From: Candidatus Saccharimonadota bacterium
Lineage (GTDB): Archaea > Micrarchaeota > Micrarchaeia > Micrarchaeales > Micrarchaeaceae
Reading direction: 5' to 3'
NCBI RefSeq assembly: GCF_002214165.1
Contig: NZ_CP019964.1
Span: 390,001 to 422,000 of the forward strand
Length of the DNA: 32,000 nucleotides
Position 1 is the first letter of the stretch. Every line of letters starts with the position of its first letter. The position numbers were made by a program, and so were the translations under genes. Below, one piece after another: positions 12,220-31,590 of the stretch. The notes beneath the pieces are model-generated. The model was given only the letters and a program-made list of their open reading frames with translations, was not told the origin of the DNA and did no database searches.

Positions 12220-12408
12220 ATGGCTAAGCAAATAATGGTATCAAATGAGGTTTATAGATTATTATCAAAAAATAAAAAGAATAAAAGTTTCTCAGACGTT
12301 ATAAAAATGCTTTTAAAATCTAAAGAGCAAAAAAGGCCAAAGGCATCCTCTTTAGCAGGGTTGCTAAAAAACGATAAAAAGTTATTAAAACTAAAAAAAA
12401 AGCCATAG
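12220..12408 (+). CDS. vapB: VapB-like antitoxin (small, basic)
   Basis: MAKQIMVSNEVYRLLSKNKKNKSFSDVIKMLL... is typical of small archaeal antitoxins encoded upstream of PIN toxins. I moved the start to ATG 12220 because the track's first 26 aa look spurious. Confidence 0.55.
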   Translation: MAKQIMVSNEVYRLLSKNKKNKSFSDVIKMLLKSKEQKRPKASSLAGLLKNDKKLLKLKKKP

Positions 12409-12454
12409 AAAAAGAGAGAGAATAACGTAAGTAGAACTTTCGAAAAGTGGTAAT

Positions 12455-12832: not shown

Positions 12833-13045
12833 ATTATTCAACAATTAAGACATTTAAATATTTTTTGCTCATATAAAATAGGGTTTTAATTATAAATTAA
12901 TTAGCTAGTTGCTTAGTAAATTATTTGAATTTATAAATTGGACAAAATTAATTAATATAAAATTTATCATTTTTATGCACATCTTTTATAATTTATCGTT
13001 AAATAAGATACAGATGTTAAATTGTTTTAATATCTTAGTGAGTTT

Positions 13046-14856: not shown

Positions 14857-15741
14857 TTATAAAGGAGGAATTTTTTTGTTTGAAAATAAAATTTCATACA
14901 CTACTCTTTTATGTGATGAAATTAGATATTGCTTGGGCAAATAAATATTTTGGTTAGATAAAACTTTATCATTAAATACTCCTTTATTAGAGTATAAATT
15001 TTTAATAAATTCATTATTATCATAAGATACAAGCCAAGGGCTAATAATCTTATTAGAAAGTAAAGTAGCAAGTTTTTTATGATCTTCCCGGTTAAAATAA
15101 AAACTATATAAATCTTTTCCAGCTTTAAAATATGGTGGATCTATATACAATAAGCTATTGCTATGTTTATTAGAAAAATTTTTTATAAACCTAAGTCCAT
15201 CTAAATTTGACAAAACTACCTGTTTTTTAAATTTATATAAATATTTTATTTTATTAACTATATTACTATCTCTAAATCTACAATATATTTTGTATTTAGA
15301 TTCTTGGTTTCTACCTCCAAGTGGCCCTCCTTTAATTATTCCTGAATAAGAAGTTCTATTTAAAAATAAAAAAGTGGATGCATATTTGAGCATGTCTTTA
15401 TCTCCATATTTTACTTTTGAATTCATAAATATTTTATAAAATTTTTTAAATTCATAATATTTTTCTATTGTAATATTTGTCGACATTTCTTCTATTTTTT
15501 CTATAAACTCCTGATTCAAATTAAATACTGAATACCAAAATGCATAAATCATAAAATCCTTATCATTGATGTAAGCTTTATTAACAATACCCATTTCTAA
15601 TAAACTAATAGATATGGAAGCACTTCCACCATATGGTTCTGCAATACTTCTATCCAATTTATGGTAAGTTATAAAATTTTCTACATAATTAACCAGCCAT
15701 CTTTTATTACCTGGAAACCTTAACGGTGTTAAATTCTTCAT
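14857..15741 (-). CDS. D12-class (Dam-family) N6-adenine DNA methyltransferase
   Basis: 294 aa. Contains LRFPGNKRWL, motif I EPYGGSASISI, FLFLNRTSYSGI and motif IV LLYIDPPYF. It lies 31 nt downstream of the ParB-like gene on the same strand. Confidence 0.85.
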   Translation of the reverse strand: MKNLTPLRFPGNKRWLVNYVENFITYHKLDRSIAEPYGGSASISISLLEMGIVNKAYINDKDFMIYAFWYSVFNLNQEFIEKIEEMSTNITIEKYYEFKKFYKIFMNSKVKYGDKDMLKYASTFLFLNRTSYSGIIKGGPLGGRNQESKYKIYCRFRDSNIVNKIKYLYKFKKQVVLSNLDGLRFIKNFSNKHSNSLLYIDPPYFKAGKDLYSFYFNREDHKKLATLLSNKIISPWLVSYDNNEFIKNLYSNKGVFNDKVLSNQNIYLPKQYLISSHKRVVYEILFSNKKIPPL

Positions 15742-15772
15742 ATTATTGTATCCCTTAAAAAATATACAGTAT

Positions 15773-17290
15773 TTAATCTTCTTTAAGTAATATCTTTTGT
15801 ATTAATATTCTTACACTATCTGCTATTAATTGAACATGTTCAGGTGAAGGATTTATAAAGGATTCATGTACCATATCATTTAAATATTTACGTATCCCAT
15901 CTTTACTCTGCTGTATTTTTTCCATAGCCTCTTTGGCATTTTTTCTATACGCTTCATTTGTAAATAATTTTTGAACATTATTTATACTATATTTAACAAT
16001 ATCATCTAAATTATATAATCTAGCAATACCCCTCAAAGCATTTGATTTTAAAAAATCTTTCCATAATCCCTTATCTTCAATCCTATAAATTAAAGAATTT
16101 TCTATTAAGGTTCTTGTTAAAATTAATGTGGCTAGTGGATAATTCTTAACATCTATACTCGATATCTCCTTTGCTATATGTTCTAGTTTACTATTATTTA
16201 AACTCTTGCTAACAGTAAGATTACTAAAATATTTTGGTTGGCTTTCAGGTTTCTTTCCTTTTTCTGGCAATTTTTTATTAAGTAATTCAATATTATTGTT
16301 ATTATCTCTTTTAATTTTTAAATCCATAAGTTGCCCTGATCTTTGTCCAATTTTAGTTTGATTATATGCTTCAATCCATTTTTCAATAAGCTCTTTAATT
16401 TGTGTTTTATTTGTACGAGTAGTTATAGTTGGATCCTTACCTAAAAACATTGAACGTGTTAATTCAATCATAACATATCTAAATTCATTTTTATCCATTT
16501 TAGTTTGGAGGTTAAATTCATTATCAAAATTTATACTTAACATCTCCTGGATTTCAGATGACATATGGTAAGGAAGAACTGAAACCTTAAGATTATTATT
16601 AGATAATTTATACCTTTCTTGATCTGTCCAATCTGATAGATCTAATATATATCTAATAAAAGAGTAGTTTTTTAGATTATTCTCAATTAATTTAGGGTCT
16701 TCACCCAATATTTTACTCATTTTAGTGATATTTTTAATCTTCTGGAATTGGATGTAATCTCTTCTCCATTTCGAAATGTAAGACCATTTCTTTATCTGAT
16801 ACTGTGTATGTCTTGCAGTTATAATCTTTTGAATTGATTCTCTGTTTGGTCCAATTATAACATTAAAATATTCTATTTTATCTAAATTGATATCTGAATT
16901 AAGTTCTTTAATTTGCAATTGGTATTTACTTGGTGCAAGATCTGGATTAAGCATGCATTTTGCAGCGCATACTCTCCTATTCCCTTCAAGAACTTTGTAT
17001 TTATTATTCTCCTCTTTAATTACTATAATATTTTCACTAGGATAGAAACCAGAATTCTCAATTATAGATTCTATTAACTCTATTATCTCTTCCTGTTTAA
17101 AAAGTTCCCGTATTATATCACTTTGGCTTGCATCAGGTTTAAGATTAAGTCTCGGATTTTCAGGATCTAATAGAATATCTGAGGTTTTTACTTTTTTCCT
17201 TGACCATTCGTTATTATCAAAATCTGGGGTTTCAATTTCTTTCACTTCATCTTCATTAAGTTCCTTATTCTGATCCATATTATTTACCAA
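15773..17290 (-). CDS. ParB/Srx-fold N-terminal domain protein with ~370-aa unassigned helical remainder
   Basis: 505 aa. ..SDILLDPENPRLN.. and ..NKYKVLEGNRRVCAAKCM.. (GxRR box) are the two signature boxes of ParB N-terminal domains. TTG at 17290, with ATG at 17278 as an alternative start. Confidence 0.7.
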   Translation of the reverse strand: MVNNMDQNKELNEDEVKEIETPDFDNNEWSRKKVKTSDILLDPENPRLNLKPDASQSDIIRELFKQEEIIELIESIIENSGFYPSENIIVIKEENNKYKVLEGNRRVCAAKCMLNPDLAPSKYQLQIKELNSDINLDKIEYFNVIIGPNRESIQKIITARHTQYQIKKWSYISKWRRDYIQFQKIKNITKMSKILGEDPKLIENNLKNYSFIRYILDLSDWTDQERYKLSNNNLKVSVLPYHMSSEIQEMLSINFDNEFNLQTKMDKNEFRYVMIELTRSMFLGKDPTITTRTNKTQIKELIEKWIEAYNQTKIGQRSGQLMDLKIKRDNNNNIELLNKKLPEKGKKPESQPKYFSNLTVSKSLNNSKLEHIAKEISSIDVKNYPLATLILTRTLIENSLIYRIEDKGLWKDFLKSNALRGIARLYNLDDIVKYSINNVQKLFTNEAYRKNAKEAMEKIQQSKDGIRKYLNDMVHESFINPSPEHVQLIADSVRILIQKILLKED

Positions 17291-17859
17291 GTACCTTTTA
17301 ATTTTTATAAATATAAAAATGTTTGGTTATTTTTGACTTTGGGACAAAAGTTATTGATCATCTTTTACAGTCAAATAAAATATTTTACTATACTATTTTG
17401 GACCATATACTTTTACTTTATTACTTAATTTTATTAGGGTTCTACTAAAAAACCATTAACTCATCTTATGATAATTTTTATTTTATGTGACATTTATTTA
17501 TTAATGGCTGATTACAGTTGACTTTTGTCTTAAAGTCTTTCTTTTCATTTAATATTTAATAAAAGACACTTTTCAATTTCAAATTTAATATTAGTTAAAT
17601 ATACTGAAATGATTTTTAGGGATAACTATAATTTTCTAATTTGATTTATCCCCAACCTAAGGAACATATATTTTTATATAAAACATTAAATAATTTATAT
17701 CGTATATAATATTCAAAAAGCTTATTATCTTAATAATAACTTATTCAATGTTCCTAATTATTGTAAATTTTATACCTTGATAAATTTCTTGTAATTAGTT
17801 GGGTTAAAAATCTAGAACCTCTAATTATATATGGATTAAAAGTTAAAAGGTGCTATAAA

Positions 17860-18717
17860 TTGGAAAAAGTCATCGAAAAGGTAATACCCGGAAAGAGTAC
17901 GCATGATGGTGCAGGAGTAAAGCTGTTCAGGGTATTCTCAAATATACCTGATCTTACTGATCCTTTCCTTCTGCTAGACAACTTTGGCTCATCAGATATA
18001 AAAGATTACATAGAAGGTTTCCCCTGGCATCCGCACAGGGGAATAGAGACTGTAACTTATGTGATAAAAGGCAAGGTGGACCACAGGGACAGCGAGGATA
18101 ACCAAGGAACCATATATCCTGGAGACCTACAGTGGATGAGTGCTGGAAGCGGCATATTCCACGAGGAAATGCCAAAATATATCGAGGAGAAAAATAAGAT
18201 ATATCCAGACATGGTCGGATTCCAGTTATGGATAAACCTGCCTGCAAACAGGAAGATGTCAACTCCTGTATACAGATCAATAAAAGGCAAAGATGTGCCT
18301 TCAATAAGATTGGGAAGCAGTGAGATAAAGCTTATAGCCGGAAGGTTTGGAAATGACTATGGCGCATATGACGGAGGCACGCAAGATGTCACCTATATGC
18401 ACGTAAAGCTTAATGATGACAGGATAGCTTTCAGCATAAAGGAATTATACAGGGCTATAATATACGTGTTTGAAGGATATGCAAAAGTTGGCAACAGCGT
18501 ATACAGCAAAGGCCAAGCTATTATATTCAGCGAAGCTGGAAACTCCATATCTGTAAGCGGCAAAGGGGAGCTGATGTTCATGAGCGGAAGGCCATTGAAA
18601 GAGCCTGTTGCATGGTACGGCCCCATAGTGATGAATAATTACGATCAGATAAAGCAGGCACTCCTTGAATTGCAGCATAATGCATTTGTAAAGGACAGGA
18701 AGCCATTATTCGAATAA
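17860..18717 (+). CDS. Pirin family protein
   Basis: 285 aa. FPWHPHRGIETVTYVIKG and ..LQWMSAGSGIFHEE.. are cupin/pirin signatures. The start is TTG. G+C is about 48% on a sampled line. Confidence 0.9.
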   Translation: MEKVIEKVIPGKSTHDGAGVKLFRVFSNIPDLTDPFLLLDNFGSSDIKDYIEGFPWHPHRGIETVTYVIKGKVDHRDSEDNQGTIYPGDLQWMSAGSGIFHEEMPKYIEEKNKIYPDMVGFQLWINLPANRKMSTPVYRSIKGKDVPSIRLGSSEIKLIAGRFGNDYGAYDGGTQDVTYMHVKLNDDRIAFSIKELYRAIIYVFEGYAKVGNSVYSKGQAIIFSEAGNSISVSGKGELMFMSGRPLKEPVAWYGPIVMNNYDQIKQALLELQHNAFVKDRKPLFE

Positions 18718-18750
18718 GATAAAATATAATTAATAAGAATAAAGTTTTTA

Positions 18751-19353
18751 TCATTGAAGTTCCTCTAGCATTTTCTCAAACTTTTCGTTATACTCATTAA
18801 TCATTTCCTTATAATCTATATTAAACATTTTATAATACTCTTCATTGGATACCGCAATGCTTGGTGCTAATGTTCCAGATTTCAAATTTAATCTTTTATA
18901 AAATTCTTTTATACTCTCCTCTGAAGGACCCTCTACCTCCATCTTGTAAGGCAACTTAGGCCATTTATCTATAACTATATCCAGATTATTTTCTTTATAA
19001 CGATAATCAATTCTGCTTTTTTCTATATAACTATACTTTGCATCAGGCAACATTTTAAGTATTATTTTAGCGGTTGTTATGAAATCGCTCGTTTCTACTT
19101 CATACTCTAATCTTTTGTTTATATCTGTTCCGTACTGCTCCTTCAAAGTAAGGGTCGTTTTCTTTCCATCGCTCCTTACACGTGCCCATTTGGTATAATA
19201 TTCTTCGCTTTCTATGTTTCCTCTATTTTCTATTTCAATGTTTAAAATCTTGTAATTGTAAGTCCCTACATAATTGGCTTCTAATTCTTGCAGTCTTTCT
19301 TTAGCCTCTTCTAAATTTATATTGGTGACACTTATCTCAATTTCGTGTAGCAT
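18751..19353 (-). CDS. CYTH-domain protein (CyaB/triphosphate tunnel metalloenzyme-like), tentative
   Basis: 200 aa. There is an N-terminal HEIEISV (ExExK-like start), alternating charged beta-strand pattern, and ..YKMEVEGPSEESIKEFYKRLNL... The size fits class IV cyclase/CYTH proteins. The call rests on motifs only. Confidence 0.45.
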   Translation of the reverse strand: MLHEIEISVTNINLEEAKERLQELEANYVGTYNYKILNIEIENRGNIESEEYYTKWARVRSDGKKTTLTLKEQYGTDINKRLEYEVETSDFITTAKIILKMLPDAKYSYIEKSRIDYRYKENNLDIVIDKWPKLPYKMEVEGPSEESIKEFYKRLNLKSGTLAPSIAVSNEEYYKMFNIDYKEMINEYNEKFEKMLEELQ

Positions 19354-19495
19354 ATTATCACTTTAAATATAATTAAATTTTTATAATTAAATTTTATTAA
19401 TACTTTTTATCTAATTTATTTATCAATATTTTCCATTAAGCCTATTTAGGATATAGCTATCTAGCTAGAATACCATTTCATTAATTAATAATATT

Positions 19496-19732
19496 CTATT
19501 TATTCAATATATTATCATCTATCTCTATTACCTTTCTTTTGCTTAAACTTCCTTTCACTATAGTTATGGATGATTTAGGTACATTGAAGTAATCAGATAG
19601 TATAGTTATAAGCCTTGAATTCGCTTTACCTTCAACAGGAGGAGCATCCACTTTTACTTTAAATGAAGAATCAGATATCTTTATTACTTCTGACTTTCTT
19701 GAATTTGGGATTACCGAAACTAAGATTTTCAT
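19496..19732 (-). CDS. DUF167 (YggU/UPF0235) family small protein
   Basis: 78 aa. ..VKVDAPPVEGKANSRLITILSDYFNVPKSSITIVKGSLSKRKVIEI matches the conserved P-x-x-G-K-A-N...G..S..K pattern of this family. Confidence 0.75.
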   Translation of the reverse strand: MKILVSVIPNSRKSEVIKISDSSFKVKVDAPPVEGKANSRLITILSDYFNVPKSSITIVKGSLSKRKVIEIDDNILNK

Positions 19733-19750
19733 ATAATCAAAATAATTTTA

Positions 19751-20569
19751 TTAATTCATTTGTAAAGCGGATTTCGAAAACTTAAATTCAACACTTTTAT
19801 TATTTATGTTGCCTTTTAAAGTTGGCATTTTTCCATTATTTTCTTTAATTCCTTTTTCCATATCATTTATCTCTTTCAATGAGATATAAATATCAAAGTC
19901 AATTTGTTTAAAATTATTTGATATTATCTTATAGTAAATTTTTGTAACTTTATTGGGATCATTGTTATAATCATTATCAAATTTAAAATAATTAGTAATT
20001 TGATATGACAAATTTTTCACTGGATAAAAAATATTATTTTCTTTAATTGTTCTCACTTTTGCAATAACAAAAGCATCAAATCTTAATATTCCATTATCCT
20101 GTAAAATATCTGAGCTAACCGAATCAAAACTTATGCCATTGCCTAATATTGAACATCTTGGATTGGTATAATTATAATCTGGTGATTCTCTTAAATTTTT
20201 TGTGAATTTTTGGATTTTATCCCCAAAAAATTCAATTTTATCAATTATTATTTGACAATTTGTAACATTTTCTTTTTTACTATAATTTTTGATACTAAAA
20301 ACCATTAAATATGGAGTGGTTGCACCTTCTATGTCAAAATTTTTACATGGAGAATAAAAATAGTATGATTCTAAATTAATTTTATCATTTTTAATAGAAA
20401 TTATGAATGAATAAAAGCCTAGAAGGATAGCTACTAAGCTAATTAGGATACTTATAATGCTATTGTTAAATAATTTAATCCATACAGCAACCGCTATAAA
20501 TATAATAAGTATCGGCATAATTATAATTTCTAAATTAATTAAATTATCCTTATTTACATATTTTCCCAT
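19751..20569 (-). CDS. Hypothetical membrane protein (two N-terminal TM helices + ~190-aa soluble domain)
   Basis: 272 aa. The TM segments are IIIMPILIIFIAVAVWIKLF and IISILISLVAILLGFYSFIISI. The rest is Asn/Lys/Ile-rich with no motif I recognise. It lies 85 nt downstream of res and 18 nt upstream of DUF167. Confidence 0.5.
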   Translation of the reverse strand: MGKYVNKDNLINLEIIIMPILIIFIAVAVWIKLFNNSIISILISLVAILLGFYSFIISIKNDKINLESYYFYSPCKNFDIEGATTPYLMVFSIKNYSKKENVTNCQIIIDKIEFFGDKIQKFTKNLRESPDYNYTNPRCSILGNGISFDSVSSDILQDNGILRFDAFVIAKVRTIKENNIFYPVKNLSYQITNYFKFDNDYNNDPNKVTKIYYKIISNNFKQIDFDIYISLKEINDMEKGIKENNGKMPTLKGNINNKSVEFKFSKSALQMN

Positions 20570-20654
20570 ATATTCATCAATTTATTTTTATCACATATTT
20601 TAAAAAAGATCTAAATAAAATATAAAAATTAATAATTTAAGCAAGAGGAATTAA

Positions 20655-23207
20655 TTATTTAAGATCTAAGTCTTTAGCATATTTAGATGTAAAGAATTGA
20701 ATCATATTTTCAAAATTGTCAAAATGATATTTATCAAATCCATTTTCATTAATCCTAACATATACCCATTTGTCTCCGGTAACTCTTTCAGCATCTTCAC
20801 ACCATAATATAGCTCTCTTATCCTTAAATTTTACATCTATATCCTCTTCCCCTTTTGTCTCTGCAATAACATACTTATTCTGCATTTTTATAATAAAATC
20901 AGGAATATAATGCCTTAGGTTTCCTTCAGAATCCCTATACTCTATAGAAAATCCTATTTTTTGAACAATTTTTGAAAATGCAATAACGTCTTCTGTAGAA
21001 TCTAGAAAACGCGAAAAATTGACCTCAAGATTATTATCACAGGGCACATAATTAAAAATGCATTTATTAGCTTGATATACATCTTTAGTCCATGGAAAAG
21101 GTGATGTTTCTGATATTAAAATCCTATCAGATTTATCTACCTCTCTATTAATAAACGCAAGATTCTTCATGCTTTCTCCAAATGCTTTTATTATTTTTTC
21201 TTCTACTTCTGGCTGGCTTATCTGAAATAAAACTCTTGGGTCATTTATATTAACCTCTTGATCAAACAATTTCTTTTCTATATACTCTTTTACAATTGGG
21301 TATAAATCAGCAAACATATTGGTAAGTTTGATTTCATTTAATATTTTACCTGTGTAATATGCTATTACACTTTTTACATCTTGTGGCACCGGTAAATCCC
21401 AACTTCTCTCAACTTGAACTGCTCCAGTTACCATATCAAAAGCTTTATAATTTGTTTTGAAAATCTTATTTTCAAGTTTTATAGAAAGTGAAGGTATTTT
21501 ATCTAGTATACCTTCGTTAATTTCAAATTCTCTAACTATAATTGATGGAGTAAGAATTGGAATTTCTATATCTAAGTTCTTTTTATCTAAATCAACAGAT
21601 ATTGCTACTATATTAATTGGATTTTCTAATTTTGTAGTTCCAAATTTTATATTTTCATCCTTTTCTAATTCCTCTATAATTTGCATAAGACCTGGGGATC
21701 CTATAACTTCTAATATATTTATAAAGTCCTTTATGCTAGCATTTTCATCTGGAAACATCTTTCTAAGACCTCTTCCTATTACTTGCTCTGGAAGTACATT
21801 TCTTTCTGATGTATAAGATCTTAAACCAACTATAACATTTACATTACGTACATCCCAACCTTCATTTAGCATCATAGTACTTACTATAACTCTATAATTG
21901 TTATTATCGCTATCAATAGATTGGGCAGATTTTCTTGCCTCTTCGATATCAGATTTTGCTACTTCTCCAGTACTGTCTGTATGAATTAATAGAACTTTTT
22001 TAGAGAATTGAGGTAATGTTTCAAGATATTCCTTTAATTGATCCGCTTGTTTATTATCGGGACATTGGAAAAATAATATTGGCTTCTTATTTAGTTTTGC
22101 TAATGCCTCATTATATTCCTGCCATCTTCTTATACCTGCATCAATCCATGCCTTATAACGTTCAACAACATTAGTTGATGTTACCTCAGTAGCATTTTGA
22201 ACTATACCTTTCAAAGGCCTTTTTACTATATTCATTTCTATAGCTTCCTTTAATGTGAAATCAACTATTAGCCAAGGAAATAGAACTCCATTTTCAGCTC
22301 TTGGAGTAGCTGAAAAGTCTAGTTCCATATTAAAGCCTTTTCCATACTCTGACTTTAAAGCTCTATGGAGATCTATTAGTATCTGTTTCCATTTCTTTTC
22401 GTAATTATATATATGGTGGGCTTCATCCTTTAGTATCATTATATTAGGTATTTTCTCAAGCACTTCTTTTATTCTGTTATCTTGGGCAATGTTTGTTCTA
22501 TTAACTTCCTTTAAATCTAAAACTTTATCAATAAATTCATCTGCTTCCTTTTTCCTATTAGCTTTATCCTGTAGTTGCTGAACATTTGTAAGAAATAGCA
22601 CTGAATCGGGTATATCATTTATAGGATCTTCTTTTAAGATAACCTTAATATTAAATTCATCTATCCATTCGGGTGGAATTAATGGTATTTCATGAAAAAT
22701 TTTACCATTTTCGTAATCTCTTTTAAGACGATCATAGATGACATTTTTTTCACCTGCAATCAAAAGAAATTTTGATGTATAATCATCATTACTTTCAAAC
22801 TTATGATTAAAGTATTGCCATACAATAGATAATGCCATAACATACGTTTTTCCAGAACCTGTAGCCATTTTAAATCCATAGAGTGGATAGATGTCTGTAC
22901 TTGGATCAAATACTTGTGGTTTATCCCCAAAATTTGCCATCAGATCTAAAAACTTCCTTATTTTCATAACTTCGTAAATATAGATTAAAGTTTCAATAGA
23001 TTCTCTTTGGGCATACCAAAATTCAAATTTTTCATTGTTTATTATATGATCCTCATTAAACCAGAAATTTAGAAGTCTTTTAGTAGTATTTGTTACATTT
23101 GGATATCCAGAATCTCTCCATACTTTAATAGCGGGTCTTAATTTATTTACTAGATACGCTTTGCTTTCATCTCTGTCCTGTGGTAATAAGATATCTGATG
23201 GGTTCAT
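20655..23207 (-). CDS. res: Type III restriction enzyme, Res subunit (helicase-nuclease)
   Basis: 850 aa. Helicase motif I is MATGSGKTY and motif II is LKDEAHH. The C-terminal nuclease motif is YIPDFIIKMQNKYVIAETKG (PD...ExK). The ATG overlaps the mod stop (ATGA, 23204-23207). Confidence 0.9.
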   Translation of the reverse strand: MNPSDILLPQDRDESKAYLVNKLRPAIKVWRDSGYPNVTNTTKRLLNFWFNEDHIINNEKFEFWYAQRESIETLIYIYEVMKIRKFLDLMANFGDKPQVFDPSTDIYPLYGFKMATGSGKTYVMALSIVWQYFNHKFESNDDYTSKFLLIAGEKNVIYDRLKRDYENGKIFHEIPLIPPEWIDEFNIKVILKEDPINDIPDSVLFLTNVQQLQDKANRKKEADEFIDKVLDLKEVNRTNIAQDNRIKEVLEKIPNIMILKDEAHHIYNYEKKWKQILIDLHRALKSEYGKGFNMELDFSATPRAENGVLFPWLIVDFTLKEAIEMNIVKRPLKGIVQNATEVTSTNVVERYKAWIDAGIRRWQEYNEALAKLNKKPILFFQCPDNKQADQLKEYLETLPQFSKKVLLIHTDSTGEVAKSDIEEARKSAQSIDSDNNNYRVIVSTMMLNEGWDVRNVNVIVGLRSYTSERNVLPEQVIGRGLRKMFPDENASIKDFINILEVIGSPGLMQIIEELEKDENIKFGTTKLENPINIVAISVDLDKKNLDIEIPILTPSIIVREFEINEGILDKIPSLSIKLENKIFKTNYKAFDMVTGAVQVERSWDLPVPQDVKSVIAYYTGKILNEIKLTNMFADLYPIVKEYIEKKLFDQEVNINDPRVLFQISQPEVEEKIIKAFGESMKNLAFINREVDKSDRILISETSPFPWTKDVYQANKCIFNYVPCDNNLEVNFSRFLDSTEDVIAFSKIVQKIGFSIEYRDSEGNLRHYIPDFIIKMQNKYVIAETKGEEDIDVKFKDKRAILWCEDAERVTGDKWVYVRINENGFDKYHFDNFENMIQFFTSKYAKDLDLK

Positions 23208-25246
23208 ATTTTCACCTTTATAATTTTATTGGTATCATTACCAAAGACATCCACAACTTTTACCATTACTTGGTATTCTCCTTTTTCTTCGTATTTGTGG
23301 TTTGCTTCATATTCGACTTTTAGATCTTTCTTTGTTCTGTAGCTTTGCCATTGATTATGGAATGTATCCCCTTTAAAATCCCAATCAACAGCCCAATAGT
23401 CAATAAGTTGTCTTGAATCTTTTAAATTTTTAAGTGCTTCTAGAACATCTGGGCTAGGATTAAGATTGAAATCTTCGATTTTCAAAGTTAACTCTTTATC
23501 CGATATAACCTTTGAAATTCCTAAGTAAGCAAGTTCATTGAATTTTACTGATGGAATAAGATTTTTCTTAATTACTTGGTCAGGTATCTTTAAAAGTTTA
23601 AGATCAAAGTCACTATCTGCTAAAACAGATTTTAACTCATTCACATTTGGTATCTGAATCAATCTAAGGTCTAATCCTTCTTTTTCTGCTAATTTTTTTG
23701 CTAAATCATTAACTTCATAGTTCCATTCCCATCCTAGAACATCTGCTTCCTTAAAGTTGTTATTTATGCACTCTGTGATAAAATTCCTGATCTCGTCCAT
23801 TGAAACTGGTGAATTACTTGAACCTATGTGAACAGCTCTTGGACCTTTCGAAGCATGTATATAGCGGAATCCATTGAGAGGATTTGCCTCATACAGTTTA
23901 ATCATAAATGATAAGTAATCCTGCGGATTTTCCTTCCAGTATGCAAGCTCATAGTTTCCAATGTTCCAGAGCTCAAATGGTCTTGCAGGTTTGCCATATT
24001 TGTCTTTCTTCTCATCCATTAAATCCTTTGAATTATGAATATCAAGTAACCTCTTTCTTGTAACCTGAATAGCATATTTAGATAGATCTGAGCCTATCCA
24101 TCTTCTTCCTAATTTTTCTGCAACTGCAAGAGTTGTGCCAGAACCGCAGAAGAAGTCTGCTACTAAATCTCCAGGACTAGAGGAAGATAGAATTATCCTT
24201 TTAAGTAACGACTCGGGCTTTTGAGTGTCGAATTGTAAAAATTCTTGCGATTGGCCTTGTAGCGGATTTACTTCTTTATCCACCCAGATGTCCGAAACTA
24301 TTTGACCATGTGTATCTTTTAAGTATACCTTTAATCTATATCCTCCGTTTTTTGTTTTGTAGATTTTTCCTTCATTCCAGAACATTTCTAAATTTTCTTG
24401 AGAATATAACCAAGGCGCGGTTATGCCCCTAAATTCAAACACTTTGCGTCCAACTGTCCTTTGTGTCCCTCCAGCAATCAGTGCAGTAGTTTGGTATGGA
24501 CCTTTCCCGTCACCGTCATCATAAACAAAACTCCTCAGATAATCTTCATTAGGGGTTTTATAAACAGGATTAATATTGATTAATTGTTTATTTTTACCAT
24601 AAATGAAAATCATATCATATTGATTCCCAAACCCAATTGATTGAGCTTTAGGGCTGTTTGTTTTTCTCCACACAATTTGATTAATGTAATTATCATATCC
24701 AAAAATCTCATCCATCATAACCTTAACGTAATGTCCGATGTGTTCATCTAGATGGATCCATATTGTGCCATTTTCTACTAATAACTCTTTCATTAAGGAT
24801 AACCTGTTATACATGTACTTCAAGTATGATGCGATTCCCCCACTCCAGGTATCATTATAAGCCCTCTTTTCAATTATTGATGGTTCTTTTTCAATTTCTG
24901 AATCATCAACTTTGGTTTTAAAGGAAAAATTTGAACCTGTGTAGAATGGTGGGTCTATATAAATCAGATTTATCTTTCCCGCCCATCCCTGTTTTAAGAG
25001 TGAAGACATCACGAGCTTGTTATCTCCCCAGATAAGTTTATTCCTCCAGTCCTTAGGATAGTTTTCTGGCCATTTATCCTCAGGAAATAGGGATGCATTT
25101 ACACCACCCTTGGATCTTGGTTTGTTGACTGTTTCAACTACCTGAAACGGTAGATTTGGGTAATCGATCGGAGTCATATGGCTAATTTCCATTTTTTTAT
25201 ACTTATCATGCCATAGTAGCTCCACATATTTCTCGTCCTTTTCCAT
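23204..25246 (-). CDS. mod: Type III restriction-modification methyltransferase, Mod subunit
   Basis: 680 aa. Motif IV (LIYIDPPFYTGSNF) precedes motif I (VADFFCGSGTT). This beta-class order is typical of type III Mod proteins. Confidence 0.9.
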   Translation of the reverse strand: MEKDEKYVELLWHDKYKKMEISHMTPIDYPNLPFQVVETVNKPRSKGGVNASLFPEDKWPENYPKDWRNKLIWGDNKLVMSSLLKQGWAGKINLIYIDPPFYTGSNFSFKTKVDDSEIEKEPSIIEKRAYNDTWSGGIASYLKYMYNRLSLMKELLVENGTIWIHLDEHIGHYVKVMMDEIFGYDNYINQIVWRKTNSPKAQSIGFGNQYDMIFIYGKNKQLININPVYKTPNEDYLRSFVYDDGDGKGPYQTTALIAGGTQRTVGRKVFEFRGITAPWLYSQENLEMFWNEGKIYKTKNGGYRLKVYLKDTHGQIVSDIWVDKEVNPLQGQSQEFLQFDTQKPESLLKRIILSSSSPGDLVADFFCGSGTTLAVAEKLGRRWIGSDLSKYAIQVTRKRLLDIHNSKDLMDEKKDKYGKPARPFELWNIGNYELAYWKENPQDYLSFMIKLYEANPLNGFRYIHASKGPRAVHIGSSNSPVSMDEIRNFITECINNNFKEADVLGWEWNYEVNDLAKKLAEKEGLDLRLIQIPNVNELKSVLADSDFDLKLLKIPDQVIKKNLIPSVKFNELAYLGISKVISDKELTLKIEDFNLNPSPDVLEALKNLKDSRQLIDYWAVDWDFKGDTFHNQWQSYRTKKDLKVEYEANHKYEEKGEYQVMVKVVDVFGNDTNKIIKVKI

Positions 25247-25248
25247 AT

Positions 25249-25554
<306 letters not shown>

Positions 25555-25782
25555 TTTTCATAAAGTATTATTTAAATAAACTTAAATAGATTGTCTTAGT
25601 ATATTATTTTTAGATATAATATTATTTATATATACTAAAATAGTAATGGAAAAATTAGAAAAATTTGGTATATTAATATTTTGATATTTTGTTTAGTATG
25701 CAATAAAACGAAAGTTCATAATTATATAAGATAAAACGTAATATATTTAAAATATCTTAAACTAATTATACGTGGTGTTAAA

Positions 25783-26244
25783 ATGGAAGATTGTATACCT
25801 AATAGATATAGTGAATTATATAAAAGTTTAAATAATGAAATAAATAATATTATAGAGTACAGTTTAAAAACTCAAGATCAAGAATTGGATTGTATAAATA
25901 AAGAGATTCAGAATGCTGAAAATATGGAAGATTTAAATTTGGTTTTTGATAATTTAAAATTATTTAGATTAAAACTCATAAAGGATGTTGAACGAAAGCT
26001 AAGACAAGAAAAAGCAAAAGAAATAGACTATGAAATGCACTATGAAATGTTTTCATATAGAAAAATAAGTGCTCTATTACTATCATTGATAGAAACCAAT
26101 GTAGATAAGGCTATTGAATCATTATTTAAAATAGATACCAACGTAATAGGATCGGTCGAAAAAATTGCAAAAAAGCTAGGAGCTAAAGGATTTTCAATTA
26201 CACTAGGTTTACCCCTTAATTTAACAGTTACATTAAATTACTAA
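25783..26244 (+). CDS. Hypothetical protein, helical/coiled-coil-like
   Basis: 153 aa with ATG start and no motif I recognise. It is the only sizeable ORF between the two 82-bp repeat copies. Confidence 0.5.
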   Translation: MEDCIPNRYSELYKSLNNEINNIIEYSLKTQDQELDCINKEIQNAENMEDLNLVFDNLKLFRLKLIKDVERKLRQEKAKEIDYEMHYEMFSYRKISALLLSLIETNVDKAIESLFKIDTNVIGSVEKIAKKLGAKGFSITLGLPLNLTVTLNY

Positions 26245-26540
26245 GTTAAATTAACATAAATAGACAAAATTAATAAAATTTACTAAGTAATAAAAAATAA
26301 ACATTTTGTTATTCAGTTCATCTAATAACCTGATAGATAAAGTCATCGTAAAAAAGGATTCTGATAAACTTATAAGTACTGAACTGTTTTTCTTTACAAG
26401 CGCTAAACACTCGTGCAATACAATATTTGCATCTATTATAAGCTCAAGATCATATTACCTAAACTATATAAAGTTTTTTCAAAGAAATCTTTATATTGAG
26501 TTTTAACTTCTTCAAACGTATTTATAATAACAAATATATC

Positions 26541-26622
26541 CACCAATAGCCTTTCTTATATAGCGTTGAGCTAAAACGCATTTTTCATAAGGTATTATTT
26601 AAATAAACTTAAATAGATTGTC
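26541..26622. repeat. Direct repeat copy 2 (82 bp)
   Basis: CACCAATAGCCTTTCTTATATAGCGTTGAGCTAAAACGCATTTTTCATAAGGTATTATTTAAATAAACTTAAATAGATTGTC. Here the duplicated minus-strand start gives only MRFSSTLYKKGYWWIYLLL* (19 codons). Confidence 0.9.
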
Positions 26623-26726
26623 CCGTTGTACCATTTTTGTATACCTGCTCAATGAGCATTATTAAAAAATTTTTATTAAAAGAAACATTTAAATTCTTTT
26701 TAATTATTTTATATAAATGCGTTTAA

Positions 26727-27020
26727 ATGAATGGATTAAAAGAGAGAACCCAAGAGATAATTTTTAATAAAGACGGTATCATTGTAACCGAAACTGTAGA
26801 TGATCTAGTTAATAAAACTAACGGGATCAGACTAACAAGGTATGATTCACTTACTGAGTTATATACCAAATTTCAGGGACCAATAGTATTAAAATCTATA
26901 AAGATTGAGATGTCAGCTGATGTATTAATGTCTTTGACTTTGGTAGTTTACAATGAAGATGATTGTTATGATGAAAATCCAAAAATGGTTCTCTATTTTG
27001 AAAGAGCAGATAAAAATTAA
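26727..27020 (+). CDS. Hypothetical small protein
   Basis: 97 aa with ATG start, 104 nt downstream of repeat copy 2. No motif I recognise. Confidence 0.45.
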   Translation: MNGLKERTQEIIFNKDGIIVTETVDDLVNKTNGIRLTRYDSLTELYTKFQGPIVLKSIKIEMSADVLMSLTLVVYNEDDCYDENPKMVLYFERADKN

Positions 27021-27286
27021 GAATTCGTATTAGATTGTAAAGAGCATAAAACAAAGGATTAATATAGAATCCTTGAAAAACCTGCGAATTTCTTATAAAA
27101 GAAGGAAAACTAACTCAAAATCTCATACCAATAGAATTAGAGCATTCTAGAGTAATAGAATTTATATTGAGATATTAATAGTTATGAAATAGCCATTAAA
27201 ATTCCATATTAGTTCTTTAAAAGTTTGAATATCCTGAAAGCATAGGTAAAAGAATAACTATTTATATATGATGATAATAATATAAA

Positions 27287-28334
27287 TTGATTTATATGGA
27301 CAATAATGAAAATCGATCAAAAGATCAAAATAATGGTATACAAGTTTGGGTAAATAAGATAAAATTAGATAAAGAAGATGAAGAAGATAAAGATAAAGAA
27401 GATAGAAGAGACAGAAAATGGTATACTAGCTCTTCTGAGTATTGCATAAAAGAGGGATATGTAGCTATTGGTTATGGTGTACGTGAGTATCCTTTAGATT
27501 GGGAAATCTATAAAGAGGAAGTAAAAAAAGGATATGGAAAAAATAAATTTCACGGAAAATTTAAAAATGATTTAGAAAATGTAATAATACCATTTCATGA
27601 TTTAGTTAAAAAAATGATCTATGTTGGGCTAGAACAGAAGATAGAAATTATTGGCTAGGTAAAATAACAGATGGTGTATGGCATTATATAGAAGGTACTG
27701 GATTTGATATACATAATGTAAAGAAATGTAATTGGATTAAAATCGGTGAAGAAATAGATAATATTCCTTTAGAGGTAATAAAGAGCCTTGGTCGTGGAAA
27801 AAAGAAATACATGATACAAGCAGAAGAAGAAGAAACTAAAATATTATCTGAATATTTATGGTCTAAAAATAATGGCGAAAATCTTAGTAAATATAATCTT
27901 GAATTAAAAGGTATGGATATATCAAAATTAATTTCAACATGGGATTATGAAGATATAATAGGGATTTATTTACAAAAGAAATGTGGCTATTATATAATAC
28001 CATCAACAAGAGGACCAAATACCCCAAAATATGAATACAATCTGTAAAAGAGGATAATGGAAAAACAAAACGCGCATTTATTCAGGTAAAAACAGGTAAA
28101 TCAGGAATAAATTTAAAGGATTATACTGATAAAAATGAATATTATTTATTTTCTGAAGGAAGTCATTATTATAATGACAAAAAAGAACTAAACAATACAG
28201 AATTGGATGAATTTTTGAAAGAAAATAAAAATTTTCATATATTAAACAGAGATGAACTTATTAAATTTATATATGATAATAAGGGGATTTTACCTGAAAG
28301 AGTGACTAATTTACTTAATTTATGTGCAAAATAA
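27287..28334 (+). pseudogene. Frameshifted gene for a PD-(D/E)xK (restriction-endonuclease-fold) protein, three frame segments
   Basis: Frame A runs 27287-27613 and frame B to 28044 (the track's ORF 27811..28047 is its tail). Frame C runs 28044-28334 and is absent from the track because it has no start. My joined reading: ..FHDLVKK/NDLCWARTEDRNYWLGKITDGVWHY...STWDYEDIIGIYLQKKCGYYIIPSTRGPNTPKYEYN/VKEDNGKTKRAFIQVKTGKSG...LLNLCAK*. The D...QVK pattern spans the second break. Confidence 0.65.
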
Positions 28335-28676
28335 GAAAATTAACTTTTAATTATTTTATCTGTATTTTTAATATTTATGCTAAGTAAATCCTATAAAATT
28401 ATCTTTATGACTGTCCAAGAATGATTGGTTTCAGCTTTAAACATCCTTTTTCTTTCCTCATCTGAATCATGAACTAATATATCTCTATCCATTCTGAACT
28501 TCATTAAGATATTTTAATATATCCTCTTTATCCAATATACGATTTATACGTTTTAATAAGTCTACCAATAACTATGGATTTTAGTATCAGAAAATAAACA
28601 TTTAAGAATTCAACAACTTAAGAATTATAATAATAATAACTAATAAGAATATGATTATATATAAATTAATAAAAAG

Positions 28677-29810
28677 ATGGTTTTGGTGAATTTTGGGTTG
28701 AGTAAAGTAGAGACTCTTAAAGAAATGAAAGAAGAAATGCAAAATTATTTAGTAAAATATACAGATGAAATCGAAAATTACGATAATAAATCTCAGAAAA
28801 CAAATGATAAAAAAATCAAAACTTATATAATTGAATCTAATAATCCAAAACCTGAAGATGTTATTTGGCCTGAAAATATAAATCTTATTCCAACAAAAGA
28901 TCGGAATTTAAAATTGATAAAAACAAAAATAAGTAATAATCAGGGAATAAGTTATTTGGATTGTTCAGATCCCAGGTTTTGGTATTTACATACGAATATA
29001 GATTCTAATAATACAAAAAAAATTATAAATGATCTAGTTAATCATAATAAAAGTAAGCTTGATTTTTGTTGGTATTCCTCCAATTTTCTTGAAAAAAAAG
29101 TAGGTTTTGGAAAGAGTGAAGGATTTAATATAAAATTTAGGAACGAATTCTTAACAAAAAAAGAGAAAAATGAAGAAAACAGTGTTAAAGAATTTTCTAT
29201 GCTTCTATTTGGTGGCGGAGCAAAAGAAGTCCTAGATAGTTTAAGGCAAAAGGGAAATCCATTAATATCTAATGTAACTTTAACACAGATTAAGCAAACA
29301 TTTAATTCTGATTCTGGCTTTGTTAAAGAATCAATTGGTTATAAGGGTAGTTTTACATTAAACAAGGGAGATTCAATAATTAATCATTTTAATACATTAG
29401 ATTCTGTAAAAAATAAATATTTTAATATTATAAATAGACTAGAAAATGAGTATAGGATAAAATTTAGCGGAAATGAAAGTGGAATAAAAATTGATGGTAT
29501 GTATAGTTTAATAGAATTTAATAAAGAAATAGAAGATCTTAACTTATTTATAGATAGGATTTTTTCTACTAAGAAACCATTTAGACTTTGGGGAATTCCA
29601 CAATATTTAGAAAAGGATTTCGTAAGGGTTTTAGCTGTGGATTTGCATACTTTTGATAAGTTTACCTTAGAGATAACTCCAAATTATATGCGCATATTTT
29701 TATCTGAAAATAGTTGTGGTAACGTTATAGTTAGATTATTTACAAATCTTCAACTTTTTTTTGATTCACAAATAAAATTAAAGGGTTATGATGATGAACA
29801 ATTTATCTAA
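28677..29810 (+). CDS. Hypothetical protein, first gene of overlapping two-gene operon
   Basis: 377 aa with ATG start. No catalytic or NTP-binding motif found. Distinctive segments are ISYLDCSDPRFWYLHTN, LDFCWYSSNFLEKK and PFRLWGIPQYLEKDFVRVLAVDLH. Confidence 0.65.
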   Translation: MVLVNFGLSKVETLKEMKEEMQNYLVKYTDEIENYDNKSQKTNDKKIKTYIIESNNPKPEDVIWPENINLIPTKDRNLKLIKTKISNNQGISYLDCSDPRFWYLHTNIDSNNTKKIINDLVNHNKSKLDFCWYSSNFLEKKVGFGKSEGFNIKFRNEFLTKKEKNEENSVKEFSMLLFGGGAKEVLDSLRQKGNPLISNVTLTQIKQTFNSDSGFVKESIGYKGSFTLNKGDSIINHFNTLDSVKNKYFNIINRLENEYRIKFSGNESGIKIDGMYSLIEFNKEIEDLNLFIDRIFSTKKPFRLWGIPQYLEKDFVRVLAVDLHTFDKFTLEITPNYMRIFLSENSCGNVIVRLFTNLQLFFDSQIKLKGYDDEQFI

Positions 29811-30672
29811 AAGTACTATTATTATAAATTTGATAGTCGACCTATCAACTAAAACCCCAAAATTTCCACACGTTCTTTATGATAAGGGTTTTCATTTAGA
29901 TATGTTAGAACCAAGATTTATATTACCTCAAAACAAACAGAATTCTTCTGCAAAGGAAGTTGCTCCCGATATAGAAATAAATAAAAATAACGAGTATTTA
30001 TTATTTTTTGAATGCAAATATGGTAGTGCATCAAAAGATCAACTTGATAGATACAAACTTCTTACTAAGGATGATATAAAACGTAGCCATACAATAGAGT
30101 TAGCTTCTAATGAATTTGACTTTGATATATCGTATATTGGAATGACGGATAAGGAGCAAAAACTTAATATAAGTTTAGAAGATTCTATAGATAGATTTCC
30201 ATTACTCATATTAGGTAATAACTCTGTATACTTTTCACAAAACTCTTGTAAATTTAAAATGGAGGAGCTAAATGAAATATTTAGTAATCTAAAAATTCCG
30301 AATGATTTTCCTAGAAGTTTTATCCCATTCACAGTGGATGATAATGAAGAAATAATTTTAGAAGATATAATTCAACACTTTACGACAAAAACTGGTTATG
30401 ACTTTAAACCATACGACCTTCTAAAAGAACTCTTACCTTCTATGTATAATTATTATTCACAGGAGGGTCAAAAAAGTTTAATAGGTCGTATAAAAAATAT
30501 ATTGGATAAACTAATAATGGACGAAGATTTTAAGGAATTTATTACATTTACTAATGGAAAATACAGATTAGATGTAAATGAAAAAATTAAAAAATTTCAC
30601 AAAGTGTGTTATAAATTTATAAATAAATATGAGAAAAATAAGAATCAGGTACCTCTAGAAGAATTTTTATGA
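29788..30672 (+). CDS. Hypothetical protein with PD-(D/E)xK nuclease motif
   Basis: 294 aa. It begins at one of three tandem ATGs (29788-29796) inside the last codons of the upstream gene, a 23-nt overlap. ..EVAPD61IEINKNNEYLLFFE75CK77YG.. (D at 29968-29970; ExK at 30010-30018). Confidence 0.6.
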   Translation: MMMNNLSKSTIIINLIVDLSTKTPKFPHVLYDKGFHLDMLEPRFILPQNKQNSSAKEVAPDIEINKNNEYLLFFECKYGSASKDQLDRYKLLTKDDIKRSHTIELASNEFDFDISYIGMTDKEQKLNISLEDSIDRFPLLILGNNSVYFSQNSCKFKMEELNEIFSNLKIPNDFPRSFIPFTVDDNEEIILEDIIQHFTTKTGYDFKPYDLLKELLPSMYNYYSQEGQKSLIGRIKNILDKLIMDEDFKEFITFTNGKYRLDVNEKIKKFHKVCYKFINKYEKNKNQVPLEEFL

Positions 30673-30864
30673 TATACTTCTATATCATTTAGATAGATTT
30701 TTAGAGATAATTTTTAAATCATTTTGGTATATCCTCTTAATTCAATCTAATTCTCATAAAGTAAGAATAAAAAAGAGAAATTTTATTTAAATTCGATCTT
30801 ATTTTTTATTTTTGGCAACAATATATCGTTTATCATATCAGATATAATTTTATTTTCCTCTTCA

Positions 30865-31590
30865 TTGAATCTGACTGATGAAGATTGCCATTCAGGTGCA
30901 ATATGTAATTTTGGCGTTCATTTCTATCAGGGAATGTCTTACCACGAGGTATATCCTCCGCCCTCATCAATACTAGAAACCCCAAACAGCGCAACACCGC
31001 CAACCCCAAATACCGCTTATCAAACATTAAATTCAACTCTATACGTATTTTCCCCACAAAACATAGTATTAAATTATAGTTATTACATACCTATATATGT
31101 CGGAGGAAATGCTAATTATAGCGGCTATTGCGATGGCGGATATTATAATGCTTCATATAGCACATTAAATAGCTCCTTAGAAAATGCGGGTTCTGGAATA
31201 AAAGATAATGTTTATAACGTTAGTTGTTATGATCCAGATCTTGACCTTAACATAACTGGCAAAGGTCACTCCATATTAAACGTGGACTGGTTCAACGTTA
31301 AAAGCGAATCATCCACATTTATAGTAACCGATTCGCCTGTAGAATATACCGAAACAAAAATTATAGATACACCGTCTTATGATGAAGTACCTGGAGACCA
31401 ACCAGTAAATTACACTTATTATAATCTTTATAATAGCCCAGATCGTTTCACCAACAACCCGCTTATAGCCGATGATGGGTCAAGTCTTGAAAATCCGTTT
31501 CAAAATGGATATACAATAACAGCATTATATCCATCATCATCTTCTGTTAATGGATATGTATTTTATGAGTATGATAAAAATCCAAAATAA
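30865..31590 (+). CDS. Sequon-rich putative extracellular/surface glycoprotein; start uncertain
   Basis: 241 aa from TTG 30865. About nine N-x-S/T sequons (NLT, NST, NYS x2, NAS, NSS, NVS, NIT, NYT) in a Tyr/Asn/Ser/Pro-rich sequence. The frame is open upstream to 30760 and encodes a hydrophobic stretch there, but with no ATG/GTG/TTG. Confidence 0.5.
   Translation: MNLTDEDCHSGAICNFGVHFYQGMSYHEVYPPPSSILETPNSATPPTPNTAYQTLNSTLYVFSPQNIVLNYSYYIPIYVGGNANYSGYCDGGYYNASYSTLNSSLENAGSGIKDNVYNVSCYDPDLDLNITGKGHSILNVDWFNVKSESSTFIVTDSPVEYTETKIIDTPSYDEVPGDQPVNYTYYNLYNSPDRFTNNPLIADDGSSLENPFQNGYTITALYPSSSSVNGYVFYEYDKNPK

Follow-up and report, generated by a model that had tools for sequence, protein, structure and literature searches.

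MJECL33–MJECL32, an obligate and horizontally mobile gene pair of archaea and bacteria that joins a predicted PD-(D/E)xK nuclease to a highly constrained partner and may serve in defence

Two overlapping genes, here called A and B, lie towards the downstream end of a 32,000-nucleotide stretch of contig NZ_CP019964.1 (positions 390,001 to 422,000, forward strand; assembly GCF_002214165.1, placed by GTDB in the archaeal family Micrarchaeaceae). This whole stretch is referred to as the window. Analysis of the pair showed that A and B recur together in every related locus examined, far beyond chance, and so constitute an obligate two-gene unit. The unit is horizontally mobile, and is found on mobile genetic elements (MGEs) and in islands rich in defence or toxin–antitoxin (TA) genes. 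Sequence and predicted fold place B among PD-(D/E)xK-type proteins, its catalytic signature being conserved; A is a new, highly constrained protein with no characterised relative. The reading that we favour, and to which we give about an even chance, is that A-B is an autonomous, mobile two-gene conflict cassette whose role would most likely be innate defence against invading DNA.

The pair had first been noticed from the letters of the window and a list of its open reading frames (ORFs), and had been described as a translationally coupled two-gene unit without an associated methyltransferase. This description holds. The coordinates of both ORFs (Table 1), the 23-nt overlap and the start of B inside A are exactly as claimed, gene B beginning at ATGATGATG within the final eight codons of gene A. 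Such an overlap implies translational coupling, and overlap or abutment of the two genes is kept in related loci. GenBank annotates a TTG at 28698 as the start of gene A, giving 370 amino acid residues (aa), and the third ATG as that of gene B, giving 292 aa. The G+C content is 25% in gene A and 26% in gene B, falling to 15% at 29401–29460 as originally reported, compared with 42% at the start of the window (1–5 kb).

The original prediction could match neither protein to a named family, and on this point it was mistaken: A belongs to Pfam family PF25924 (MJECL33) and B to PF27326 (MJECL32). Membership was taken from precomputed assignments on proteins 100% identical to A and B, the identical protein for A being that of Ca. 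Mancarchaeum acidiphilum. In a large protein collection, PF25924 was precomputed on all 112 A homologues, and PF27326 on all B homologues. The names MJECL33 and MJECL32 are those of adjacent ORFs on the large extrachromosomal element (ECE) of Methanocaldococcus jannaschii. The two families are therefore already catalogued while their function is undescribed. Searches of A and B against NCBIfam, PADLOC and a local Pfam set that did not hold the PF25924 and PF27326 models returned noise only. In the literature searched, no mention was found of PF25924, PF27326, MJECL32/33, Mia14_0455/0456 or the RefSeq accessions, and the pair may, with small probability, already bear another label given in a recent screen.

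When 185,579 species genomes were scanned with sequence patterns, 31 A-encoding loci were identified, in archaea (Thaumarchaeota, Methanoregulaceae, Halosimplex) and in bacteria (Terriglobales/Acidobacteriota, Chloroflexota, Pirellulales, Longimicrobiales). Hidden Markov models (HMMs) placed a B-family ORF directly 3′ of A, on the same strand, in 28 of the 28 genome loci with room downstream, the most divergent clades joining this pattern after one HMM iteration. The A-then-B order was also found in 15 further contexts, among them the M. jannaschii ECE, plasmid pSTJ001 of Halobacterium hubeiense, a Lysinibacillus megaplasmid and eleven other metagenomic or genomic contexts. In the reverse direction, both of two distant B-family representatives have an overlapping A gene upstream. 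In all, about 45 A-B loci were considered, from archaea and at least five bacterial phyla, and in these B always follows A directly, in most cases with an overlap. Outside this genome, in archaea and bacteria alike, the two genes are strictly paired, as their proposed partnership had called for. The distribution is sporadic, covering DPANN, Thermococcales, Methanococcales, haloarchaea and Thaumarchaeota among archaea, together with Acidobacteriota, Chloroflexota, Planctomycetota, Gemmatimonadota and Bacillota.

HMMER identified 351 representative clusters of the B family; among the 150 listed, nearly all members measure 270–320 aa, none exceeds 459 aa, and no A-B fusion occurs. A profile search for the A family gave 141 clusters, and the 120 listed are all 343–394 aa long and single-domain, with no domain fusions among the 141. 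No third conserved gene was present among the 102 immediate neighbours at the 28 genome loci. Other BLAST clusters of neighbours were considered as conserved partners and rejected, as they were antisense shadow ORFs or clade-local synteny.

Copies of the pair occur on a range of mobile elements. On the M. jannaschii ECE, A and B overlap by 20 nt, with an OLD-family ATP-dependent endonuclease upstream and with EVE and PIN proteins and VapBC nearby. Haloarchaeal and Bacillales megaplasmids carry further copies; that on the Lysinibacillus megaplasmid adjoins two integrases, a transposase and a DEAD-box helicase. In Thermococcus kodakarensis, the pair lies at about 508.8–511.3 kb, within TKV3 (499,284–526,865), an integrated plasmid of the pT26-2 family (PMC6972569). 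Locus L002 contains an integrative mini-element of about 3.7 kb (6434–10241) in which the only genes are those of a tyrosine integrase and an Endo VII-like protein, with A and B. A 12-bp direct repeat (TGGGGTTGCCGG) at 6434 and 10101 brackets this element; the copy at 10101 coincides with the 3′ end of a tRNA gene that contains an intron (10101–10241, minus strand), found with Rfam (47.7 bits, E = 4e-9) and missed by ARAGORN. In L002–L004 the genes for the integrase, A and B follow one another head to tail with overlaps; they form a 3.0-kb block with 98% identity between two contexts, including L004, in which an attP-like junction is located exactly at the 3′ end of B. Because the B stop codon of L002 lies within the tRNA/att region, the last residues of B differ between the integrated form and the L004 junction form.

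The surroundings of several other copies are those of defence or TA islands. One locus adjoins a DUF499/PglZ/DUF1156-methylase cluster resembling bacteriophage exclusion (BREX) systems, and another an MmeI-type (type IIG) restriction–modification (RM) system with a PLD-SNF2 helicase. Mrr, a ResIII helicase, OLD and transposases neighbour the pair in L041; PIN, KilA-N and an rve integrase adjoin one further locus, and MazE-PIN another. Among the 102 neighbours, matches to TIR, Cas1, RM and other PADLOC models are scattered.

Several loci show individual features. L041 (10001–16182) carries two A-family genes 5 kb apart on a single bacterial chromosome. Downstream of the first lies a broken B gene, split by a DDE transposase, and the second is followed by an OLD-like TOPRIM/AAA_21 nuclease. 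In L006, from Methanoregulaceae, two copies of the cassette lie in opposite orientation (4113–6115, minus strand; 10275–11904, plus strand), and the frameshifted A of one and the fragmented B of the other point to cassette turnover and decay. A pentapeptide-repeat protein of about 505 aa is encoded divergently upstream of the pair in Natronorubrum and Natrinema (L001, 6383–10011; L047, 8382–12011). The B proteins of these two Natrialbaceae loci have no precomputed PF27326 assignment. In Longimicrobiales (L025, L027, L029, L030, L032 and L034, at about 8000–12100 in each), the pair sits in conserved chromosomal synteny.

The case for B as a PD-(D/E)xK nuclease was made originally from five residues, P60, D61, E75, C76 and K77, all of which are at the positions given. 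An AlphaFold2 model, built on an alignment of 119 family members, reached a predicted local distance difference test score (pLDDT) of 93.9 and a predicted template-modelling score (pTM) of 0.90. In this model, D61 opens strand 62–66 and E75-x-K77 closes strand 70–76, which is the classical PD-(D/E)xK hairpin. P60, K77, Q85 and Y89 are kept in at least 90% of the 119 members, and the signature D/E...E/D-x-K in about 26 of 32 members derived from the loci. Most bacterial copies, and those of M. jannaschii, T. kodakarensis and Halobacterium, retain the whole motif. A QxxxY arrangement, seen here at Q85–Y89, is typical of RecB/Cas4-type nucleases. Weak Pfam matches at the level of the PD-(D/E)xK clan were obtained for 15 of the 119 members in total: HSDR_N_2 in 11, and HSDR_N, VRR_NUC, NERD and YhcG_C in a single member each, all of them PD-(D/E)xK families.

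Comparison of the B model with the PDB, using Foldseek, produced a list headed almost entirely by PD-(D/E)xK enzymes (XisH, McrC, NucS/EndoMS, Hjc, SduA, Can2, ACE1, RecU and N.BspD6I), though each match taken individually is non-significant. B is best read as a predicted PD-(D/E)xK nuclease, by its sequence signature and its probable fold. Its C-terminal region gave partial Foldseek matches to the winged-helix modules of MukE/F, CAP and Scc1, and is probably, if tentatively, a winged helix in the predicted structure. Profiles of A and B had no meaningful match among PDB sequences. The B proteins of M. jannaschii (L036, 8061–9377; 438 aa) and T. kodakarensis (L045, 6001–7380; 459 aa) are much longer than the norm of about 290 aa; the profile aligns to each in two separate parts, so that an extra domain, inserted or appended, is implied.

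Conservation of the D/E/K residues, on which the nuclease claim had also been made to depend, was found family-wide among the 119 members, and the motif has decayed in two clades. In Longimicrobiales it reads P-V...E-x-A/T/C, with R in place of Q85, so that D61, K77 and Q85 are lost. In Natrialbaceae it is degenerate, P-E...[DN]-C-[RE]. Nuclease activity would therefore not always be required, since the catalytic residues have decayed in these clades while A is intact, and the Longimicrobiales pair is probably an exapted, nuclease-dead version.

Protein A was modelled with similar scores (pLDDT 93.8, pTM 0.92), as an N-terminal helix followed by three modules of β-sheet plus helix (Table 1). 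In the second and third modules the predicted order of strands and helices is like that of the TATA-binding protein (TBP), the third with the full S1-H1-S2-S3-S4-S5-H2 order at residues 277–361. Some 25 residues, polar or glycine, show little or no variation between archaeal and bacterial proteins that share about 25% identity overall; they include G274, G306, G348 and S364 in addition to those listed by module. Their pattern of conservation suggests an active site, or else a pocket for specific binding. The aromatic blocks noted originally are present at residues 98, 128 and 301, and a regular-expression check agreed that A, and likewise B, contains no Walker A, HExxH or DEAD/H motif. No catalytic motif of a known enzyme class was found in A by Pfam, PADLOC, or PDB sequence and fold searches. 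Nor did A, B or any of 226 family members contain a Pfam domain for a modified-base reader (SRA, EVE/YTH, Mrr_N, McrB-N) or a GTPase/AAA motor, as expected of type IV (modification-dependent) restriction enzymes; the TBP-like modules of A might yet be a reader of a new kind.

Against the PDB, Foldseek returned nothing for A at E ≤ 1e-3. The weak matches that recurred were to the N-terminal domains of RnlA (probability 0.94, E = 4e-3, TM-score 0.15), TBP and Iml3; those among the viral structures of BFVD were to an 'RNase LS-like' protein and to the TBP/TFIID of giant viruses (E = 1e-5 to 1e-3). A description of A as tandem TBP-like modules is moderately supported by the model, as a description and not as a family assignment. 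No internal sequence repeat was detected in A with hhalign (probabilities of about 1%). Assignment as a HEPN protein was rejected, as the only Rx4-6H strings (R100–H105 and R317–H324) sit in β-strands and no HEPN Pfam match was obtained. The Longimicrobiales A proteins have lost D129, W132, H324 and C347 and kept the other invariant residues. Co-degeneration of these four with the catalytic residues of B was considered and rejected, as B is degenerate and A intact in Natrialbaceae; because Natrialbaceae A proteins kept all four, no general coupling of residue loss between A and B is claimed.

The favoured reading of A-B, as a conflict cassette for defence against invading DNA, may be set out as a series of steps. 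The overlapping genes would be co-translated and their products would assemble into a complex. B would be the effector, a Mg2+-dependent PD-(D/E)xK endonuclease (D61/E75/K77, with QxxxY) with a probable winged-helix DNA-binding domain, and would cleave DNA. A, with three putative TBP-like α/β modules and a large invariant polar site, would recognise a trigger, which could be some feature of a nucleic acid or a ligand that arises on invasion, and so license or target B; it may add a second activity. As no methyltransferase accompanies the pair, self and non-self cannot be told apart by a cognate mark of host methylation that the pair itself encodes. The absence of this enzyme would imply discrimination that is either modification-dependent (type IV-like) or triggered by infection (abortive). 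The original prediction had proposed just such a nuclease with a sensing or targeting partner, and this proposal is upheld in part. The defence-island and mobile context favours it; the role of A as a passive sensor is unlikely, because conservation is stronger at its 25 or so invariant polar residues than at the catalytic triad of B, which has decayed in two clades.

Comparison with known systems places A-B closest, in its likely working, to defence modules made of a PD-(D/E)xK effector and a specificity partner, with a partner that is unprecedented. The true homologues MJECL33/MJECL32 share with it the gene order, the overlap, the PD...ExK...QxxxY signature and surroundings rich in defence and TA genes; MJECL32 is longer, at 438 aa compared with 294 aa for B of the window. 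B has the same predicted catalytic fold and motif logic, and the same defence-island setting, as the stand-alone or two-gene effectors Shedu SduA, Hachiman HamA, McrC, Cap4/Can2 and ACE1. The partner of B, in contrast to these systems, is not a helicase, an ATPase or a cyclic-nucleotide sensor. Assignment to RM types I–III was rejected, as no methyltransferase was conserved beside A-B in the 28 loci. The nearest one in the window, the type III mod gene, lies 3.4 kb away, as originally stated, and has its own res gene.

For the combination of TBP-like modules with a nuclease there are precedents. RnlA carries two TBP-like domains ahead of a HEPN RNase (PMC8266594). Among prokaryotic Schlafens that act as defence nucleases, about 1.5% have TBP-like domains fused to them (PMC13056530). 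The anti-phage toxins RnlA/LsoA tie tandem TBP-like modules to a nuclease effector in a phage-defence setting (PMC8266594), as A-B may do. RnlA/LsoA differ in having a HEPN RNase and an antitoxin, RnlB/LsoB, whereas A-B has neither and its nuclease is a separate PD-(D/E)xK protein; A shows no sequence similarity to RnlA/LsoA.

B alone may be compared with TnsA. TnsA proteins, of about 270–290 aa, consist of an N-terminal restriction-endonuclease-like domain and a C-terminal winged helix, the same two-domain architecture as proposed for B. Identity with TnsA of Tn7 was rejected: B has no TnsA_N or TnsA_C Pfam match, TnsB and TnsC are not conserved neighbours, and TnsA is absent from the top 50 fold matches. 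More broadly, the expectation that no model of a known defence system, TnsA, Hjc or a type II/IV enzyme would match was borne out (PADLOC v2.0, Pfam).

Several observations weigh against a defensive role. It is deduced from context only, and the association of A-B with defence islands is qualitative, without a background control; some copies lie among housekeeping genes. None of the 5027 models of PADLOC-DB v2.0 matches A or B, so that the pair cannot be linked to any validated system, and 119 B-family and 107 A-family members gave single noise-level matches only (E ≥ 9e-5). The fold matches are weak for both proteins, with a best E of 0.04 and TM-scores of 0.15–0.44 for B against the PDB, and TM-scores of 0.15–0.2 for A. 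While the core of A stays, B has lost its catalytic residues in Longimicrobiales and has degenerate ones in Natrialbaceae. Also entered on this side, though neutral for defence, is the finding that no homologue of A or B occurs in 50,697 phage records. With these points in the balance, a fuller statement is offered tentatively: that MJECL33–MJECL32 may be an unrecognised immune or conflict system of Archaea and Bacteria, in which A, a specificity subunit of a new type with three TBP-like modules and an enzyme-like invariant polar site, senses invading nucleic acid, or makes or binds a signal, and controls a RecB/Cas4-like B. In Longimicrobiales and Natrialbaceae the nuclease would have been inactivated and the complex exapted to another role.

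The explanations that compete with defence are not all mutually exclusive with it. The main rival is that A-B is an addiction or stabilisation module of MGEs, in which co-translated A would restrain B, a DNase toxin; loss of the element would free B to kill or arrest the cell, and elements that carry the pair would be retained. We consider this unlikely, although it fits the context nearly as well as defence does, because A-B is the main cargo of the 3.7-kb tRNA-integrating element with its 12-bp flanking repeats and is plasmid-borne, on the M. jannaschii ECE, the haloarchaeal and Bacillales megaplasmids and TKV3. Many type II TA operons have an upstream regulator and a downstream effector that overlap, and the order of A and B would correspond to this, as a regulator followed by an overlapping nuclease; VapBC, MazE-PIN or PIN genes often adjoin the pair. 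However, A is large (377 aa), with an enzyme-like core of invariant polar residues, unlike typical labile antitoxins. Many chromosomal copies, moreover, have no MGE hallmark within 10 kb, and both genes are kept in clades where the B motif is dead.

A second possibility, which we regard as improbable, is that A is the principal enzyme, its TBP-like scaffold supporting some new activity in catalysis or ligand processing, and that B serves mainly in DNA binding or targeting, its nuclease being auxiliary. The invariance of about 25 polar or glycine residues of A from Micrarchaeota to Acidobacteriota is what such an enzyme might show, and two clades that retain the core of A have lost D61, K77 and Q85 of B. 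The conserved synteny in Longimicrobiales likewise suggests that a non-nuclease function was retained. TBP-like domains, however, are usually binding modules, and A contains no motif of a known enzyme class; the invariant residues might just as well line a ligand pocket or make up the surface of contact between A and B.

It is likewise improbable, in our judgement, that A and B are accessory recombination or excision factors that aid a recombinase or process the ends of an element, in the manner of XisH and XisI. The genes xisH and xisI are adjacent and act with a site-specific recombinase. XisH, of the fdxN element of cyanobacteria, is the best PDB fold match of B, and some copies of A-B are operonic with an integrase: the integrase-A-B block of L002–L004 is mobile, with the attP-like junction of L004 at the 3′ end of B. 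Phage_integrase is the commonest Pfam family among the neighbours (4 of 102), and integrases are adjacent to A-B in Natronorubrum and Lysinibacillus. Universal linkage to an integrase was nevertheless rejected, as an iterated HMM seeded with the integrases of L001 and L002 matched L001–L004 only, with no further integrase at the remaining genome loci; most loci have no integrase neighbour. XisH is about 130 aa long and matches only the nuclease core of B (E = 0.04), a weak similarity that reflects the shared PD-(D/E)xK core. A has no XisI-like match and is unlike known directionality factors, and with an integrase in a minority of loci only, identity with XisH/XisI was rejected.

The weakest alternative, a housekeeping repair or recombination nuclease (a Holliday-junction resolvase, or a NucS-like enzyme with a cofactor), is very improbable: B does weakly resemble Hjc, NucS/EndoMS and RecU, but the distribution is highly sporadic (31 loci in 185,579 species genomes) with a patchy pattern of the horizontal-transfer type, copies lie on plasmids and in islands at low G+C relative to the host, some are interrupted by transposases or decayed, no repair gene is conserved among the neighbours, and Hjc itself was rejected as a stand-alone, vertically inherited protein of about 120–140 aa, whereas B has 294 aa, is always paired, patchy and plasmid-borne, and matches the Hjc fold with E = 0.15.

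In the window, the surroundings of the pair (Table 1) make up a dense defence island. All defence genes of the window are contained in a low-G+C stretch at about 12000–31000 (about 27%, versus 42% at 1–5 kb), as would fit an island gained by horizontal transfer; the parts of the window that were scanned contain no integrase or tRNA. The two-gene PD-Lambda-5-like system at 14857–17290 is complete, and would be an archaeal (DPANN) example of a system defined in E. coli. The gene upstream of A-B had been called decayed, and two PDC-S02-like fragments, out of frame and covering positions 15–62 and 142–215 of the 299-position profile, identify it as a decayed candidate defence gene. About 630 nt separate the second fragment from gene A, with no ORF longer than 46 aa. 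The 101-aa ORF that follows type III mod is probably non-coding low-complexity DNA.

The A-B pair itself is bracketed by two copies of a 36-nt imperfect direct repeat, with 78% identity and an exact core, TATATCCTCTT. This 11-mer core occurs three times in the window compared with 0.07 expected, a comparison in which the core was chosen post hoc and the DNA is AT-rich. The repeat may mark a cassette boundary or a shared regulatory site, its significance being uncertain.

Table 1. Features of the window, with positions counted from its first nucleotide; residue numbers refer to the 377-aa and 294-aa ORFs
Feature	Position	Strand	Remarks
Gene A	28677–29810	+	377-aa ORF; member of Pfam PF25924 'MJECL33'
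A module 1 (residues 47–122)	28815–29042	+	Predicted five strands + helix; invariant K48, E53, D95, D98, R100, W102, H105
A module 2 (residues 128–258)	29058–29450	+	Predicted TBP-like S1-H1-S2-S3-S4-H2; D129, W132, G231, S233, H237, Y248, E256; weak Foldseek similarity to RnlA N-terminal domains, TBP
A module 3 (residues 262–369)	29460–29783	+	Predicted complete TBP-like order; R303, D322, H324, E332, C347-G-N349, R353, N357, Q359; BFVD matches
A/B overlap	29788–29810	+	23 nt; 17 nt with GenBank start of B
Gene B	29788–30672	+	294-aa ORF; Mia14_0456; member of Pfam PF27326 'MJECL32'
B catalytic motif P60-D61-x13-E75-C-K77	29965–30018	+	Predicted β2-hairpin-β3 of PD-(D/E)xK core
B motif Q85-L-D-R-Y89 (QxxxY)	30040–30054	+	Predicted helix 83–90
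B C-terminal region (residues 187–285)	30346–30642	+	Predicted helix-strand-helix-helix-hairpin
36-nt imperfect direct repeat, left copy	28504–28539	+	Core TATATCCTCTT; 138 nt 5′ of gene A
36-nt imperfect direct repeat, right copy	30714–30749	+	42 nt 3′ of gene B stop
PDC-S01 homologue, AAA_14/DUF4143 ATPase	10846–12135	+	PADLOC candidate single-gene system, E = 6.5e-83
PIN-domain gene	12455–12832		Downstream of PDC-S01 homologue
PD-Lambda-5_B match	14857–15741	−	294-aa D12-class methyltransferase, E = 1e-72
PD-Lambda-5_A match	15773–17290	−	505 aa, E = 2e-34; also a weak ParB_N hit
Type III res	20655–23207		PADLOC model match
Type III mod	23204–25246		PADLOC model match; ends 3.4 kb before gene A
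101-aa ORF with run of 13 asparagines	25249–25554	−	Over (ATT)n-type simple repeat at about 25395–25460
PDC-S02-like fragment 1	27287–27658	+	PADLOC candidate, E = 1e-4
PDC-S02-like fragment 2	27811–28047	+	PADLOC candidate, E = 7e-17

Apart from CRISPR and RM, little of archaeal immunity has yet been charted. If A-B is a defence system, it would be a compact immune module that crosses domains, with a sensor fold that has no characterised relative. It would give a function to two Pfam families that have none, and would extend the theme of TBP-like modules joined to nucleases, known from RnlA and the prokaryotic Schlafens. If the pair is instead an addiction module, it would help to explain the persistence of minimal integrase elements and of archaeal plasmids. 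Genetically tractable hosts exist in T. kodakarensis, where the pair is native to TKV3, and in haloarchaea and Bacillus, which have close relatives that carry it.

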